A DNA stretch of 64,000 bases from a bacterium (GTDB taxonomy: Bacteria; Patescibacteriota; Minisyncoccia; Phycocordibacterales; UBA9973): the NCBI GenBank assembly GCA_037143195.1, contig JBAWZD010000002.1:207157-271156 (forward strand), in the 5' to 3' direction. Under the pieces are notes generated by a model. The model was not told the DNA's origin. It made no database searches and saw nothing but the letters and a program-made list of their open reading frames with translations. Every line of letters starts with the position of its first letter. The stretch's first letter is position 1. Below, piece after piece: positions 30,140 to 36,323 of this stretch. The translations under genes and the position numbers were made by a program.

Positions 30140-30688
30140 ATGGATACGAGAAAAAAATGGGCTCGCACACTTGGTGCATTTATGATTTGTTTGATTGTTC
30201 GATTGATTCCTGTTCGCGCTCCAAATGTTGAGCCTATACTCGCCGTACAGATGCCATTTGCGAAGCGATACGGCCCGCTCCTTGCGTTTTTGTTTGGGTT
30301 CGCGAGTATTCTCCTCTATGACATCATAACGAGCCGTGTGGGCATCTGGACGCTTATTACAGCCATTGCCTACGGAGCACTTGGAATTGCAAGTTCGCTC
30401 TATTTCAAACACCGTTCTGGTACCCGAAAACAGTTTGTGGCGTTCGCGATTGGTGCAACGATCCTCTATGACGCGATTACGGGGCTCACGATTGGACCAT
30501 TGTTCTTCCATCAGAGTTTTGTGACTTCGTTTGTCGGTCAAATTCCATTTACTGCATTCCACTTGCTCGGAAATATCCTCTTCGCTCTTGTACTCAGTCC
30601 TGCAATCAATCGTTACCTTACGTTTGATGATGCTCGAAGTCGTTCATTCGTCGAAAATCCAATTACAAATCCATCATTCATCTCATAA
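30140..30688 (+). CDS. membrane protein, possibly an ECF-transporter S component (CbrT-like), first gene of the nrdJ operon
   Basis: about 180 aa with 5-6 helices; context with B12-dependent RNR; 3-nt gap to nrdJ. Confidence 0.4.
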   Translation: MDTRKKWARTLGAFMICLIVRLIPVRAPNVEPILAVQMPFAKRYGPLLAFLFGFASILLYDIITSRVGIWTLITAIAYGALGIASSLYFKHRSGTRKQFVAFAIGATILYDAITGLTIGPLFFHQSFVTSFVGQIPFTAFHLLGNILFALVLSPAINRYLTFDDARSRSFVENPITNPSFIS

Positions 30689-30691
30689 CCT

Positions 30692-32968
30692 ATGAAAAAT
30701 CTCAAAAAATACTCTGCACTCAAAAGTATCCAGAAGCGCGACACTTCAATCGTTCCCTTTGATCCAAAGCGTATCGAACGCGCGCTCGCGCGCGCTATGG
30801 AAGTAGCGAACGAGGGAGGAAGTAAAGAGGCAGAGCATGTCATGTTCAAAGTGCTCGACACATTGCTTGCACTCAAAGCGGAAAAGAAGAACAAGAATTT
30901 CATTCCATTCGTTGAGACGATTCAAGACGTCGTTGAAAACGAACTCATTGCAGCAAATTTTTCACAGACAGCCAAGGCATACATTTTGTACCGTAAGGAG
31001 CGCTCGCTCGTGCGTGAGAAAGTTGGATTTGTTCCAGAGAAAGTCAAAGAGCTTGCAACTGAGAGTAAAAAATATTTCCGCAATCCGCTTGCAGAGTTTG
31101 TGTACTACCGCACCTACTCACGTTGGATCCCAGAAGAGGGACGTCGAGAGACATGGGTGGAGACCGTTGATCGTTACATGAGCTTCATGCGCGAGAACCT
31201 CGGTTCAGGTCTCACCGAAAAAGAATATGCAGAAGTCCGCGAGGCGATTCTTCGCCAAGAAGCAATGCCATCGATGCGCCTTTTGCAGTTTGCAGGCAAG
31301 CCCGCACGCCGCTCAAACGTGTGTGCGTACAACTGTTCATTCATTGCGCCTCGATCATTCCAAGATTTCGCTGAGATAATGTACATCTCCATGTGTGGTA
31401 CTGGAGTCGGCTGGAGTGCTGAAAGTGAAAATATTCAAGCGCTTCCACAAATCAAACGCCAGACAGGAAAGAAGCTTCCAACATATCTCGTGCCAGACAG
31501 CAAGGAAGGATGGGCAGATGCATTTAGCTTTGCGATGAAGACATGGTTTGATGGTAATGATGTTTCGTTCGACTACTCACTCATTCGTCCAGCAGGTTCA
31601 CGTCTCAAGACAATGGGAGGCAAGAGTTCTGGTCCAGAGCCACTTCGTTCATTGCTCGATTTCACTCGTGAGCGTATTCTTCGTCGCCAAGGACGTCACC
31701 TCACAAACCTCGATGCACACGACATCATGTGTAAGATTGGAGAATGTGTCGTTGCCGGTGGTGTTCGACGCAGTGCGATGATCTCGCTCTCTGATCTTGA
31801 TGACGAAGCAATTCGTGATTCAAAGAAAGGTCAGTTCTATCTCGCCGAAGCTCAGCGTATGCTCGCAAACAACTCTGCGGTCTACCTCGAGAAACCATCT
31901 GCATCAGAATTCCTCGATGAATGGGTCGCACTCATGAAGAGTGGATCAGGAGAGCGTGGTATTTTCAATCGCGGATCACTCGCAAAGACATTGCCAAAGC
32001 GTCGTCTTGATCAATGGAAAGATGGTATCTATCCATCATGGGGCACAAACCCATGTGGAGAAATCATTCTTCAGTCAAAACAATTCTGTAACTTGTCAGA
32101 AGTTGTTGCGCGCGCAGAAGACACACTCGAAGATCTCGAACGTAAGATTCGCGTTGCCACGATTCTCGGTACGTACCAATCAACACTCACATACTTCCCA
32201 TACCTTTCAAATGAATGGAAGCGCAATTGTGAGAAGGAACGTTTGCTCGGAGTTTCAATCACTGGTCAGTGGGATTCTTCAGTTGCACGTAAGCCAGAAG
32301 TACTTGAACGTCTCAAAACAGTTGCAGTTGATCTCAACAAGAAACTCGCAAAGCGTCTCGGTATCAATCAGTCACTCACTGTTACGTGTGTGAAGCCATC
32401 AGGCACAGTGTCACAGACAGTGGACTGCGCAAGTGGCATGCACCCACGTCATGCTCCATATTACATTCGTCGTGTTCGCATCTCTGCGAGTGATGCACTC
32501 TTCAAGATGCTCCGTGATCAGGGCGTGCCATATCTTCCAGAAGTTGGACAAACAATGGAAGGCGCATCAACATTCGTATTTGAATTCCCAATGAAGGCTC
32601 CAAATGGCGCAATTTGTCGCGATGATATCGACGCAATCAGACAGCTCGAACATTGGAAAGTCGTTAAAGTGAATTACACAGAACACAATCCATCCGTAAC
32701 TATTTCTGTCGGTGAAGATGAATGGATCAAGGTGGGCAACTGGGTCTATGAAAACTGGGATATCGTTGGAGGACTTTCATTCTTGCCACGCTCAAACCAT
32801 GTCTACCAGCTCGCACCATATGAATCCATCACCAAGGAGCAGTACGAAGCAATGCTCGGCAAGGTCTCGCATTTGGATTTCTCAAAGATTGTGACGTACG
32901 AGGTCGAGGACGAGACAGAAGTGAAGCGTGAGCTCGCCTGTGTCGCCGGAGTGTGTGATACCGCATAG
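30692..32968 (+). CDS. nrdJ: class II adenosylcobalamin-dependent ribonucleotide reductase
   Basis: ATP-cone N-terminus, NPCGEI active-site motif, size. Confidence 0.9.
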   Translation: MKNLKKYSALKSIQKRDTSIVPFDPKRIERALARAMEVANEGGSKEAEHVMFKVLDTLLALKAEKKNKNFIPFVETIQDVVENELIAANFSQTAKAYILYRKERSLVREKVGFVPEKVKELATESKKYFRNPLAEFVYYRTYSRWIPEEGRRETWVETVDRYMSFMRENLGSGLTEKEYAEVREAILRQEAMPSMRLLQFAGKPARRSNVCAYNCSFIAPRSFQDFAEIMYISMCGTGVGWSAESENIQALPQIKRQTGKKLPTYLVPDSKEGWADAFSFAMKTWFDGNDVSFDYSLIRPAGSRLKTMGGKSSGPEPLRSLLDFTRERILRRQGRHLTNLDAHDIMCKIGECVVAGGVRRSAMISLSDLDDEAIRDSKKGQFYLAEAQRMLANNSAVYLEKPSASEFLDEWVALMKSGSGERGIFNRGSLAKTLPKRRLDQWKDGIYPSWGTNPCGEIILQSKQFCNLSEVVARAEDTLEDLERKIRVATILGTYQSTLTYFPYLSNEWKRNCEKERLLGVSITGQWDSSVARKPEVLERLKTVAVDLNKKLAKRLGINQSLTVTCVKPSGTVSQTVDCASGMHPRHAPYYIRRVRISASDALFKMLRDQGVPYLPEVGQTMEGASTFVFEFPMKAPNGAICRDDIDAIRQLEHWKVVKVNYTEHNPSVTISVGEDEWIKVGNWVYENWDIVGGLSFLPRSNHVYQLAPYESITKEQYEAMLGKVSHLDFSKIVTYEVEDETEVKRELACVAGVCDTA

Positions 32969-32971
32969 TCT

Positions 32972-33541
32972 ATGCTGTATACCAGAAAAGGAGATAAAGG
33001 AACGACGAAACTCTTCGACTGTCCGCAAGGAACGCGGATGTCGAAGAGCGCCGTGACCTTTGAAGCGCTCGGAACACTCGACGAGTTGAATTCTTCGCTT
33101 GGATATGCCAAAGTGTTGGCTGCTCGTAGTGAGGCCCACCTCATGATGGCAGGAGAGAAGCATTTGTATACGTCGCTCATTGGGCGAATACAGAACATGC
33201 TTTTTACGACGCAGGCAGAGCTTGCGGGAGCGCAGAAACAAGTCACTGAAGCAGATGTGTTGTTTGAAGAACAGGTCATCGCCGAGGTTGAAAAAGATTT
33301 GCCACCGATTACGTCGTTTATCGTCGCAGGTGGTGGCGAGACGGGTGCGTATCTTGATGTCTGTCGTACGATTGCTCGACGTGCAGAACGCGGAGTGATC
33401 GACGCGATGGAGACAGACAAGCGTGCGGTGTCTGATGAGACATTAAAATTCTTGAATCGTCTCTCGAGTGTGCTCTACGCACTCGCTCGATATGCGAATC
33501 ATCAAGAAGGATTTGCGGAGCGTGCGCCAGAGTATAGTTGA
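32972..33541 (+). CDS. PduO-type ATP:cob(I)alamin adenosyltransferase
   Basis: TRKGDKGTT hallmark. Confidence 0.85.
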   Translation: MLYTRKGDKGTTKLFDCPQGTRMSKSAVTFEALGTLDELNSSLGYAKVLAARSEAHLMMAGEKHLYTSLIGRIQNMLFTTQAELAGAQKQVTEADVLFEEQVIAEVEKDLPPITSFIVAGGGETGAYLDVCRTIARRAERGVIDAMETDKRAVSDETLKFLNRLSSVLYALARYANHQEGFAERAPEYS

Positions 33542-33569
33542 GGGTGATGTGCGGTGCGATTACAAATGA

Positions 33570-33735
33570 ATAATCATGATTGGGGAAGTGAGGTGAAAAT
33601 CCTCCACAGTGCCGCTACGGTTATAGTCCGACTACCAATCATTGATGTAGTAATGAAACTTTTTGTTTCATCCCGAGCAGGAAATGGTCGCGCGTACGCG
33701 CGACCCCGGTACTCCTCTCCTCGGGGGAGTTTTTT
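33570..33735 (+). promoter_or_regulatory. candidate cobalamin riboswitch with terminator-type expression platform (hairpin plus TTTTTT at 33709-33734)
   Basis: GGGGAAg-tga-GGTGAAAATCC-tcca-CaGtgCCGCtACgGTtA matches the AdoCbl core GGGAA..GGUGnAAnUCC..CnGnCCCGCnACnGUnA; AGCAGGAAA resembles a degenerate B12 box. Confidence 0.6.
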
Positions 33736-33740
33736 AGTAT

Positions 33741-34160
33741 ATGAAAAAAAATAAGCAATGGTTCGTGGCGGGAGGAGTGCTGATTGTTTTGGTTCTTGTG
33801 ACGACGAGTATGTTTGCAGAGGTGCATCGATTTCAAAAAACGGTTCCGCAATCTGGAGCACCGATTTCATCGACGAATGATCCTCTCGTTTCGTTTGAAG
33901 CAGGGACTGTTCACCTCTCGCTTCCTTTCCGCGCGGGAGAGACGCTGTATGATGCGATGACTGACGCGAAGAACGCGGGCACACTTACATTTTCAGGCAA
34001 AGAATATTCTGGTCTCGGATATTTTGTCACAAGTGTTGGTTCTCTCTCTGAAGGAAACGGGAAGCACCTCATGTATTTTATTAATGACAAGGAAGCATCG
34101 GTTGGTGTTTCAACGTACGCTCCCAAAAACGGCGATACTATTATGTGGAAATTGAAGTAG
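33741..34160 (+). CDS. DUF4430-like secreted/anchored protein (transcobalamin beta-domain-like)
   Basis: signal anchor; riboswitch immediately upstream. Confidence 0.6.
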   Translation: MKKNKQWFVAGGVLIVLVLVTTSMFAEVHRFQKTVPQSGAPISSTNDPLVSFEAGTVHLSLPFRAGETLYDAMTDAKNAGTLTFSGKEYSGLGYFVTSVGSLSEGNGKHLMYFINDKEASVGVSTYAPKNGDTIMWKLK

Positions 34161-34163
34161 TCT

Positions 34164-36323
34164 ATGAAAATCATTCAAAAAATCTCACTCTGCGTGCTCA
34201 GTGTTCTCGTCGCATTTTCAGTTGTTTCATCAGTTCGCGCAGATGATGCAACTCCGCCAGCTGATACGACACCTCCAGTCATTACACTCGTGGGTGACGC
34301 CTCGGTTTCCATTTCACAAGGCGCGACATATACCGATAGCGGAGCGACCGCAAGCGATGATGTCGATGGTAATATCACTGCAAACATTCATGTTGCAGGC
34401 ACTGTTGATACAACGACCGCAGGTTCCTATACACTGACATATTCGGTGAGTGATGCTGCGGGGAATCCTGCCACTCCGGTCACGCGCACGGTCACAGTTA
34501 CACCTGTCGTGGTGGTTCATCCTCTGACAGAAACAGTGTTGATTCGTAATGGAAGTACGATTATCGATCAAGAAACAGTTTCGCTTCCAGCTTCTGGCAC
34601 GGTCACAATCACCGATGATGCTGGTGCGACGCATTCAGTGAATGCAGATAGTGTGCTCGGACTATTGTTTGCAATGAGTCAGGGCGGAACATTTTCGTTG
34701 TCTGATCTTACGTATTACAGCTCGTTTAGTTCACTCTACCTAAAGTGTCTTACTCCAAATGGTGGAAGTGCGCTCTGTGACAATTGGCAATTCGTCGTCG
34801 GTGGTACATCGCCATGGACGAGTATTGATCAGACAATTCTTTCAGGAGGGGAGACAGTTGGTCTGTATTTTGGATCATCACACAGAGTGCGTTTTGATAC
34901 GACACAGGTAACGACTGGCGGATCCGTACATGCAACAGCAGAACAATACAACTATCTCGACAATTCATGGAGTCCACTCACCGGTGTCTCTGTTGGGGTG
35001 ACTGTACCAAATCCAAACGATCCATACAATCCGACAGTCGTGAGTTCTGTTCCTGTCGATGCACAGGGAAATGCAACTCTCTCGTTTCCAAACAGTGGCA
35101 CATTTTCTGTCGGTGTTGTCGAAGACTATTATTTCCCATCATATACCGTGACAGCAACTGCAGCTGTACAAACGAGTGGTGGTGGAGGTGGTTCGGGTGG
35201 TGGGGTGCTGCTTGAAACAACTTCGCCCCAAAAAACTGCGCTCGTGTTGAACACACAAAATGCTTTTACGTTTTTGAAACAAAATCAGAATACTGACGGC
35301 TCTTTCTCTGGCGGTGATATGTATACCGATTGGGCAGGCGTTGCATTTGGCGCGATTGATAAGAATCAAACGGATCCTGCAACACAGAAATTGATTCAGT
35401 ACTTGAGTACACACGCACTCGTTAAACCACGCTTGACTGACTATGAACGTCGCGCGATTGCAGAACTTGCACTTGGACAAAATCCATACACATTCGGCGG
35501 TGTTGATGTCGTTACGCCTGTCGTACAATCGTTTGACGGAACACAATTTGGCGATGCCAATTTGATCAACGATGATGTGTTTGCGCTCATCGCGCTTGAA
35601 AGTGCTGGCTACACGAGTAGTGATGCACTCATCGCAAAAGATGTTGCATATATTCTTTCGAAACAAGGCACCGATGGATCATGGGAGGCAGGTGTCGATA
35701 TGACTTCAGCTACCGTGCAGGCACTCAGCCCGCTCGCAAGTGTGAATGGTGTTTCGGACGCACTCAAAAATGCGTCGACATATCTGGCGCAGAGTGAGGC
35801 GAGTGATGGAGGATTCGGTTCTGCATATACGACGAGTTGGGTTGCACAAGCGATGAATGTTTTGAAAGCATCATGGACAAAGAACGGACATGATGCGCTT
35901 GGATTCCTCGCAGGTTCCCAACAAACTGACGGAGGACTTTTGCTCGCAAGTGACACGATGCCAAATCGTATTTGGGCAACGAGTTATGCTATCCCTGCAG
36001 GTCTCGGACTTTCATGGAATGCGGTTTTGCACTCAGTCGCGCGACCTGTTGTTGCGCCGAAACTTGATCAGACTGTTGCACCTGTTTCAAAAACAGTTTC
36101 GTCAGTCGGCGAGAATGATGGAGCGAAACCAAAACAAAGTGCGCGACACAATCTTGGGGCACTATCCACCGCTCTTGCCGTCCAAGCCCTCGAAAATCCG
36201 ACCCAAACATCGACGCAAAACGCACCGCAAACACCGGCCGAACAGTCACATCCAAAAAAGACATTCAAACAATCAGTAATTGCAATTTGGCATACCTTGG
36301 TACATACTCTTACATCATGGTAA
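34164..36323 (+). CDS. large secreted protein: signal peptide, DUF5011-like Ig domain, Gly linker, alpha/alpha-toroid (prenyltransferase/transcobalamin alpha-domain-like) repeats
   Basis: repeated TDGSF/TDGSW/SDGGF/TDGGL motifs; GGGGGSGGG linker. Confidence 0.6.
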   Translation: MKIIQKISLCVLSVLVAFSVVSSVRADDATPPADTTPPVITLVGDASVSISQGATYTDSGATASDDVDGNITANIHVAGTVDTTTAGSYTLTYSVSDAAGNPATPVTRTVTVTPVVVVHPLTETVLIRNGSTIIDQETVSLPASGTVTITDDAGATHSVNADSVLGLLFAMSQGGTFSLSDLTYYSSFSSLYLKCLTPNGGSALCDNWQFVVGGTSPWTSIDQTILSGGETVGLYFGSSHRVRFDTTQVTTGGSVHATAEQYNYLDNSWSPLTGVSVGVTVPNPNDPYNPTVVSSVPVDAQGNATLSFPNSGTFSVGVVEDYYFPSYTVTATAAVQTSGGGGGSGGGVLLETTSPQKTALVLNTQNAFTFLKQNQNTDGSFSGGDMYTDWAGVAFGAIDKNQTDPATQKLIQYLSTHALVKPRLTDYERRAIAELALGQNPYTFGGVDVVTPVVQSFDGTQFGDANLINDDVFALIALESAGYTSSDALIAKDVAYILSKQGTDGSWEAGVDMTSATVQALSPLASVNGVSDALKNASTYLAQSEASDGGFGSAYTTSWVAQAMNVLKASWTKNGHDALGFLAGSQQTDGGLLLASDTMPNRIWATSYAIPAGLGLSWNAVLHSVARPVVAPKLDQTVAPVSKTVSSVGENDGAKPKQSARHNLGALSTALAVQALENPTQTSTQNAPQTPAEQSHPKKTFKQSVIAIWHTLVHTLTSW

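Follow-up and report, generated by a model that had tools for sequence, protein, structure and literature searches.

The interval 33572–33735 of the window (by which we mean the whole 64,000-nucleotide stretch of DNA analysed here, on whose forward strand the features described below lie unless noted) contains a class II cobalamin (B12) riboswitch, a member of the already catalogued Rfam family AdoCbl-II. Very probably it acts as a transcriptional OFF switch, through a kissing-loop/antiterminator mechanism, on a two-gene operon for putative extracellular B12-binding proteins. The observations that carry this reading are the family membership of the element, the covariation of its aptamer, the invariance of a motif downstream, the alternative pairings open to that motif, and the genes that surround it.

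A scan of both strands of the 64 kb with Rfam 15 gave a single match at gathering thresholds, RF01689 (AdoCbl-II, the former AdoCbl-variant family), at 33563–33645; it scores 55.4 bits against a gathering score of 36.5 (E = 8.1e-11) and covers model positions 1–81 of 81. A permissive scan of 33400–33900 returned RF01689 again, together with two other members of the cobalamin clan that overlap it, score lower and were suppressed. An earlier sequence-only reading of this DNA had proposed a cobalamin riboswitch of a variant class with a terminator platform and had named an Infernal search with the models for RF00174 and AdoCbl-variant as the check; the full-length match above threshold, with the other clan members scoring lower, bears this out. 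Its thought that a variant class might be at hand was right in that the AdoCbl-variant model is the one matched, and wrong in that this is an existing Rfam family and not a new class. The strings that it had quoted, GGGGAAG-TGA-GGTGAAAATCC-TCCA-CAGTGCCGCTACGGTTA, do lie at 33582–33623. The Rfam alignment starts the element at 33563, slightly 5' of where that reading had it begin, and the start is 33572 when P1–P3 is drawn as a single contiguous helix. Two other hits over the platform, Termite-flg (18 bits, E = 0.95) and Plastid-petD (14.8 bits, E = 3.2), were below threshold and were dismissed.

Through the DUF4430 protein encoded immediately downstream we recovered two close syntenic relatives, L001 and L004, which score 55.0 and 50.5 bits against RF01689, and from these two and the window (three sequences) a covariance model of our own, R1, was built. 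The ribonucleotide reductase (RNR) encoded upstream has relatives at 68–85% identity, and almost all of these belong to MAGs of the Patescibacteria (CPR) radiation that bear the labels Nomurabacteria, Paceibacterota, Saccharibacteria, Giovannonibacteria and Parcubacteria. Searched with R1, 80 Patescibacteria RNR loci yielded 20 that carry the aptamer, many of them with it about 570–700 nt 3' of the RNR gene; the spacing in the window is equal, the gap there being occupied by a PduO gene. A pattern scan of metagenomes with AGTCCGA N20-50 CCCGAGCAGGA matched at least 120 stretches, among which the aptamer is present at E<=1 in 13 of the 80 metagenome loci searched; the remaining matches to this pattern, which has 18 specified bases, are by a rough estimate mostly due to chance. 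Related loci share ancestry, and all statistics over loci given here therefore overstate their independence.

The aptamer, as delimited by R1 and by an alignment of 30 homologues (A3), spans 33572–33646 and is a 75-nt four-way junction with neither a P2 arm nor a large P6 extension. Comparative data place a contiguous P1–P3 helix at 33573–33583 paired with 33635–33642 and 33644–33646, the J3/4 strand GGAAG at 33584–88, P4/L4 with its GUGAAAAUC T-loop at 33590–33604, P5/L5 at 33608–33616, P6/L6 at 33618–33630, and the B12-box equivalent AGUCCGA...CCA at 33625–33637. The L4 T-loop normally docks with L6. The P3–P6 four-way junction and the conserved core (GGGAA, GGUG.AAAUCC, CCGC.ACGGU and AGUCCGA) are all present and are supported by covariation: 96% of the cells of A3 are paired, versus 24–46% in a control in which the pairing partners were slid, and 15 of the 21 base pairs show compensatory changes on both sides. 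All 11 pairs of the single continuous P1–P3 helix covary, as does P5 (cAGU..GCUa to cUGU..GCAa). At P6 the window has only a 7-nt loop (UUAUAGU), and the relatives have at most one short hairpin there; the window, L001, L004, L022 and L049 lack it, whereas most of the remaining relatives carry it. Inserts of about 30–40 nt occur in L4 of two relatives (L044, 5487–5592, and L024, 3405–3485); the window has none. The window aptamer contains neither a P2 loop-stem-loop nor a large P7–P11 extension, and it is the lack of these two that defines class II against class I (PMC7367189).

That this region is a chance resemblance, a decayed relic or a stretch of coding sequence is scarcely credible. Two mechanically called ORFs do span it (33554–33754, and 33574–33984 on the reverse strand), but the length differences among the relatives are confined to loops and are not multiples of three, and all three readings have against them the full-length structured match (E 8e-11), the compensatory base-pair changes across 30 homologues and the conserved placement 5' of DUF4430 genes. 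The B12-box region itself reads AGUCCGA and then ACUA-CCAAU (33625–33639), which align to AGUCcGAGcGCCaC of the model; in the Rfam alignments the window has an A, and L001 a G, at G70 of the model's GCCAC. The sequence-only reading had found the canonical GCCACUG element not obvious, a description that is incomplete, as its equivalent is ACUACCAAUC at 33631–33640 (ACUGCCAAUC in the closest relative, L001). The 'AGCAGGAAA' that had been taken for a degenerate B12 box is something else: it lies outside the aptamer, in the 11-nt regulatory motif downstream.

This motif, CCCGAGCAGGA, is found 25–48 nt 3' of the B12 box in every homologue. The 20 RNR-retrieved Patescibacteria loci were not selected for it, and it is exact in 18 of them and present as one-base variants in two. 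In the window it occupies 33672–33682, and we read it both as a P13/L13 regulatory hairpin (U-CCCGAGCAGGA, 33671–33682) and as an antiterminator strand. The proposed P13 is a 3-bp stem, UCC/GGA, with a 6-nt loop, CGAGCA (33674–79); the UCC/GGA hairpin is predicted outright by RNAfold in L022, L049 and L123. Between P1 and P13 comparison with relatives picks out an optional linker hairpin, AUGAAAC UUUUU GUUUCAU (33653–33671), which is kept with compensatory changes in L001 (AUGGAAC/GUUCCAU), L004, L010 and L035 and is missing in most others.

The proposed partner of this hairpin is the L5 loop UGCCG (33610–33614), which is complementary to its loop (U33610–A33679, G33611–C33678, C33612–G33677, C33613–G33675 and G33614–C33674, with A33676 bulged). 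From this complementarity, and by analogy, we infer an L5–L13 kissing loop of 5 bp with a bulge, both partners of which are invariant (GUGCCGC of L5 in 30 of 30 tabulated loci) and hence offer no covariation in its support. In the published class the L5 consensus is UCCCG and L5 functions in a kissing loop (PMC10327014); such a loop always has at least one unpaired nucleotide, and L13 must sit in a stem-loop (PMC5028336, PMC10327014). As far as complementarity goes, the bulged A33676 and the closable UCC/GGA loop of the window would fit both rules. A different kissing partner for GUGCCG, CGGUAC at 33706–11, was tried and rejected, the hexamer being missing there in L004 and other relatives.

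Downstream of the motif the sequence is unconserved and only the form is conserved, an arbitrary hairpin being followed by a hairpin with a tract of U5–U9. In the window the first of these is a central GC hairpin, GGUCGCGC GUAC GCGCGACC, at 33686–33705, located by folding and claimed earlier, correctly, as ggtcgcgcgtacgcgcgacc; a hairpin of unrelated sequence stands at this position in most relatives. The second, ACUCCUCU CCUC GGGGGAGU (33711–33730) with U6 (33730–33735), is judged from its sequence to be an intrinsic terminator (33711–33735), with a predicted 8-bp stem followed by T6, and is found both by a pattern scan and in the minimum free energy (MFE) fold with the motif blocked. The hairpin plus TTTTTT ending 5 nt 5' of the ATG at 33741 that had been described before is thus where it was said to be and is terminator-like in the scan. 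A hairpin and then a U-tract are present in 34 of the 36 related loci examined.

Folded without constraint, the window platform has an MFE of −29.7 kcal/mol, with the motif paired to the terminator (UCCCGAG, 33671–77, with CUCGGGG, 33720–26, and AGGA, 33679–82, with UCCU, 33713–16); when the 11 motif nucleotides are blocked, the GC hairpin and the terminator ACUCCUCU/GGGGGAGU are predicted instead, at −26.1 kcal/mol. For the window alone the gap of 3.6 kcal/mol is modest, and 30% of shuffled motifs equal or exceed it, though no more than 15% of them disrupt the terminator. Among 22 loci not selected for the motif, the flip from antiterminator to terminator is predicted in 19, versus 4.9 expected from composition-matched shuffled motifs, and in three of the 22 the terminator is already in the unconstrained MFE; the energy gain exceeds that of shuffled motifs (Wilcoxon p = 2e-4 over the 22 related loci, a value that overstates their independence). 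The terminators are of two types, one with a CUCC... 5' arm and a CUCGG loop (the window type) and one with a CCUGCU or UUCUGC 5' arm. Both types are complementary to the invariant motif, each by a pairing of its own; it is thus the terminators that adapt to the motif and not the reverse, and the motif must then be fixed for another reason.

The best explanation that we can give of these observations, in which the kissing loop, the direction of switching and the form of the ligand (below) are inferred, is the following. In the absence of cobalamin the motif would pair with the 5' arm and loop of the terminator (UCCCGAG/CUCGGGG and AGGA/UCCU) to form an antiterminator that encloses the GC hairpin, and RNA polymerase would read into the operon. 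With cobalamin bound, the L5–L13 kissing loop would be stabilised and the motif held on the aptamer; the terminator hairpin with its U6 would then form, transcription would stop 5 nt before the start codon, and plentiful B12 would in this way shut off the DUF4430 operon. It is this topology, in which sequestering the motif frees the terminator, that points to an OFF switch. Repressing B12 capture when B12 is available is the usual logic, which the OFF direction fits and which an ON switch, leaving a B12-capture protein unrepressed under plentiful B12, would not. Activating corrinoid riboswitches do exist (PMC10327014), and B12 binding might be imagined to prevent termination here as in the A. 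halodurans cobT activating riboswitch, but in cobT P13 shares sequence with the 5' arm of the terminator, so that the two are mutually exclusive, whereas here the motif is complementary to that arm; we consider an ON switch very improbable. In Priestia megaterium metE it has been shown genetically that the kissing loop stabilises P13 and that the 3' side of P13 pairs with the 5' arm of the terminator (PMC10327014).

Mainly translational control, in which GGGGGAG (33723–29) would be a Shine-Dalgarno (SD) sequence sequestered in the hairpin in the presence of B12 and the U-tract would be incidental, is also improbable, if less so. GGGGGAG does lie 11 nt before the ATG, which is an SD distance, the U-tract is 5–14 nt from the ATG in several relatives, and characterised class II members such as env8 act on translation (PMC5028336). 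In other relatives, however, the terminator lies 26–106 nt from the start codon, and in some its 3' arm is AGCAGG, which is not SD-like; hairpin and U7 are kept in both cases. When GGAG, GAGG, AGGA and GGGG were sought in the 17 nt ending 4 nt before the ATG, moreover, such a tetramer preceded none of the 41 window ORFs of at least 200 aa, versus 11.6% of random 17-mers. Many of these 41 ORFs have a −10-like box (TAGAAT, TATACT, TATAAT) 7–12 nt before the ATG, and the counts together suggest a genome that is SD-less and largely leaderless or short-leader. The host thus seems to do without SD sites, which makes transcription termination the probable output and control of translation unlikely; sequestration of an SD as a second layer of control was largely rejected on the same grounds (0/41 long ORFs).

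Three relatives (L149, L154 and L108) have no terminator, and in these the motif stands 5–8 nt before the AUG, where its AGGA(G) is likely the RBS, a placement that resembles that of L13 in the translational env8 (PMC5028336). In five metagenome loci (L149, L154, L135, L136 and L159) a riboswitch with the same L5 and CCCGAGCAGGA precedes proteins of >350 to 590 aa, which may be the products of unrecognised B12-related genes; the proteins of L149 and L135, the only two of the five that were submitted, have no Pfam match. In L149 and L154, both terminator-less, the distance from motif to AUG is 5 nt.

A possible promoter for the leader is TTTGCG (33512–17), a 15-nt spacer and TATAGT (33533–38), which together (33512–33538) overlap the final codons of the gene for the PduO-type adenosyltransferase (stop codon 33539–41). 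It was not called by a consensus scan of the window and is weaker than the boxes of relatives with longer intergenic regions, in which TTGCAT/TTGACA - N16-17 - (TG)TATAAT lies about 25 nt upstream of P1; only 30 nt separate the PduO stop codon from P1 in the window. Because the window promoter is weak or atypical, with its short spacer and its position inside the upstream gene, transcription of the element could also originate in the upstream operon: the leader may start near 33545, or read-through from the RNR–PduO genes may reach the riboswitch as well. An A/U-rich leader resembling (U)AACAAUUAAAUA is present in the 15–20 nt before P1 in L029, L034, L044, L021, L123, L020 and others; the corresponding window sequence, 33561–33571, is ACAAAUGAAUA, to which the outer P1 strand of the Rfam model aligns. 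A search for a pairing partner or a function of this pre-P1 leader found none. In L001 (4001–4513) the public call of the DUF4430 homologue, P0002 (170 aa), starts inside the platform, upstream of the terminator U-tract; its start is probably over-extended, the conserved start being the MKKNK... ATG after the U-tract. P0003 (169 aa) is of similar length.

The genes around the switch are much concerned with B12, and the location in the 5' leader of B12-related genes is kept in relatives. Upstream lie, in order, a gene for an ECF S-component-like/DUF6580 membrane protein (30140–30688), directly upstream of the RNR gene, syntenic in L001 and a candidate component of a corrinoid transporter; the B12-dependent class II RNR gene, which includes an ATP-cone (30692–32968); and the gene for the PduO-type cob(I)alamin adenosyltransferase (32972–33541). 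The Rfam scan of the window placed no riboswitch in front of the 30140–30688 gene. The first regulated gene (33741–34160) encodes a 139-aa membrane-anchored DUF4430 protein (Pfam PF14478, E = 3.6e-13). The second gene of the presumed operon (34164–36323) starts 3 nt after the DUF4430 stop and encodes 719 aa with an Ig-like surface domain (PF16403, E = 4.5e-23) and a squalene-cyclase-like alpha/alpha-toroid (PF13243, E = 1.7e-7); a gene for an ArsR regulator follows 3' of it. Judged by sequence, the DUF4430 family is encoded 3' of the riboswitch in most relatives, and all 8 of the 8 such ORFs submitted to Pfam match PF14478.

Transcobalamins have DUF4430 as the domain at their C-terminus (PMC4350170), and the window protein gives weak phmmer matches to the C-terminal domain of transcobalamin-2 (E = 0.006–0.05). 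When 12 DUF4430 proteins were made into a profile and this was run against the PDB sequences, the transcobalamin match was lost, not improved; the proposed link to transcobalamin leans on Pfam PF14478 and the literature (PMC4350170). Against PDB the 719-aa protein matched only Ig-like domains and nothing B12-related. In L148 a DUF4430 domain is fused into an ORF of >420 aa after the riboswitch, the genes being separate and adjacent in the window; this hints that the DUF4430 protein and the 719-aa protein act together.

From its architecture and its AdoCbl-making and AdoCbl-using neighbours, AdoCbl is a plausible, if unproven, ligand of the riboswitch. A paired J1/3 and a short P6 hairpin characterise the AdoCbl-binding subclass Cbl-IIb, and ligand selectivity is not reliably predictable from architecture (PMC7367189). 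The window has the paired J1/3 of Cbl-IIb and lacks the P6 hairpin. There remains a fair-sized minority chance, perhaps the most substantial of the alternatives, that the same riboswitch instead binds a cobalamin whose upper ligand is small (hydroxo-, aquo- or methylcobalamin), as does env8 of subclass Cbl-IIa: the best Rfam model is that of class II, the family in which the crystallised member has HyCbl as its ligand, and a P6 with a loop only, as in the window (UUAUAGU), is what has been described for Cbl-IIa (PMC7367189). The comparative data, on the other hand, favour a fully paired P1–P3, many close relatives have a short P6 hairpin, and the neighbouring genes are for the making and use of AdoCbl. 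The bulged J1/3 T-loop of Cbl-IIa is absent from the 30-homologue alignment, which gives a contiguous 11-bp P1–P3 helix, and the covariation of all 11 of its pairs argues against a bulged J1/3 of the env8 type. The Rfam alignment, for its part, can accommodate a J1/3 of 10 nt in the window only by giving it an outer P1 of 4 bp with 2 mismatches, and deletes J1/3 in L004.

To riboswitch biology as such the element adds little: any routine Rfam scan would pick it up, and its proposed mechanism conforms to a model already in the literature. What modest value it has would lie in the context, which on our model is one in which an uncultured, ultra-small, probably symbiotic bacterium of the Patescibacteria, dependent on a B12-requiring RNR, senses B12 and regulates a transcobalamin-like surface system. 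It is also a compact example of a kissing loop with an antiterminator, made of a 75-nt aptamer, an 11-nt motif and a terminator, and this compactness could serve engineering, or the testing of how a 3-bp P13 transmits ligand binding. Our literature searches turned up nothing relevant on cobalamin riboswitches of Patescibacteria/CPR, and the lineage-specific picture (invariant L5 and L13, an obligatory terminator, and a DUF4430 'split transcobalamin' operon beside a B12-dependent RNR) may be undescribed. A bolder proposal, which we think unlikely but worth stating, is that there is a Patescibacteria sub-lineage of class II (of the Nomurabacteria/Paceibacteria type) with a continuous P1–P3, an invariant UGCCG L5, an 11-nt P13/L13 and an obligatory terminator in SD-less genomes, controlling a 'split transcobalamin' (a DUF4430 beta-domain and an alpha/alpha-toroid surface protein) for the capture of corrinoids from hosts or neighbours. 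Were that the case, all characterised members could differ from it in the ligand that they prefer (for this sub-lineage perhaps a particular host-derived corrinoid) and in P13, which is minimal here.

Among known systems, env8HyCbl (PDB 4FRN) shares with the window the four-way junction, the GGGAA J3/4, the L4 T-loop GUGAAAAUC, the short P5/P6 and AGUCCGA; it likewise has no P2 arm and no large P6 extension, and it too has its L13 element a few nt 3' of P1. Its preference is for hydroxo- and methylcobalamin. It differs from the window in having a bulged J1/3 T-loop where the window has a continuous P1–P3 helix, and in acting on translation, with an RBS inside L13, where the window has the output of an intrinsic terminator; the Rfam consensus has CCU at L5, and the window UGCCG. 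The Cbl-IIb riboswitches (e.g. Enterococcus faecalis eut; PMC7367189, PMC6158498) resemble the window, the likeness being one by description, in a paired or absent J1/3 and in a short P6 hairpin that most members of the window family have and the window copy lacks, and they share the context of genes that use and make AdoCbl. P. megaterium metE (PMC10327014) has the same transcriptional OFF logic of kissing loop, P13 and antiterminator, and its L5–L13 register is the same (UCCCG:CGGGA there, UGCCG:CG(A)GCA in the window); its aptamer, however, belongs to class I and carries a long extension on P6, and its P13 stem is longer, whereas the window has a 3-bp P13, a bulged A in the proposed kissing loop, and a predicted antiterminator that also uses bases of the L13 loop and encloses an extra hairpin. 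These differences from env8 and P. megaterium leave the element within a known kind.
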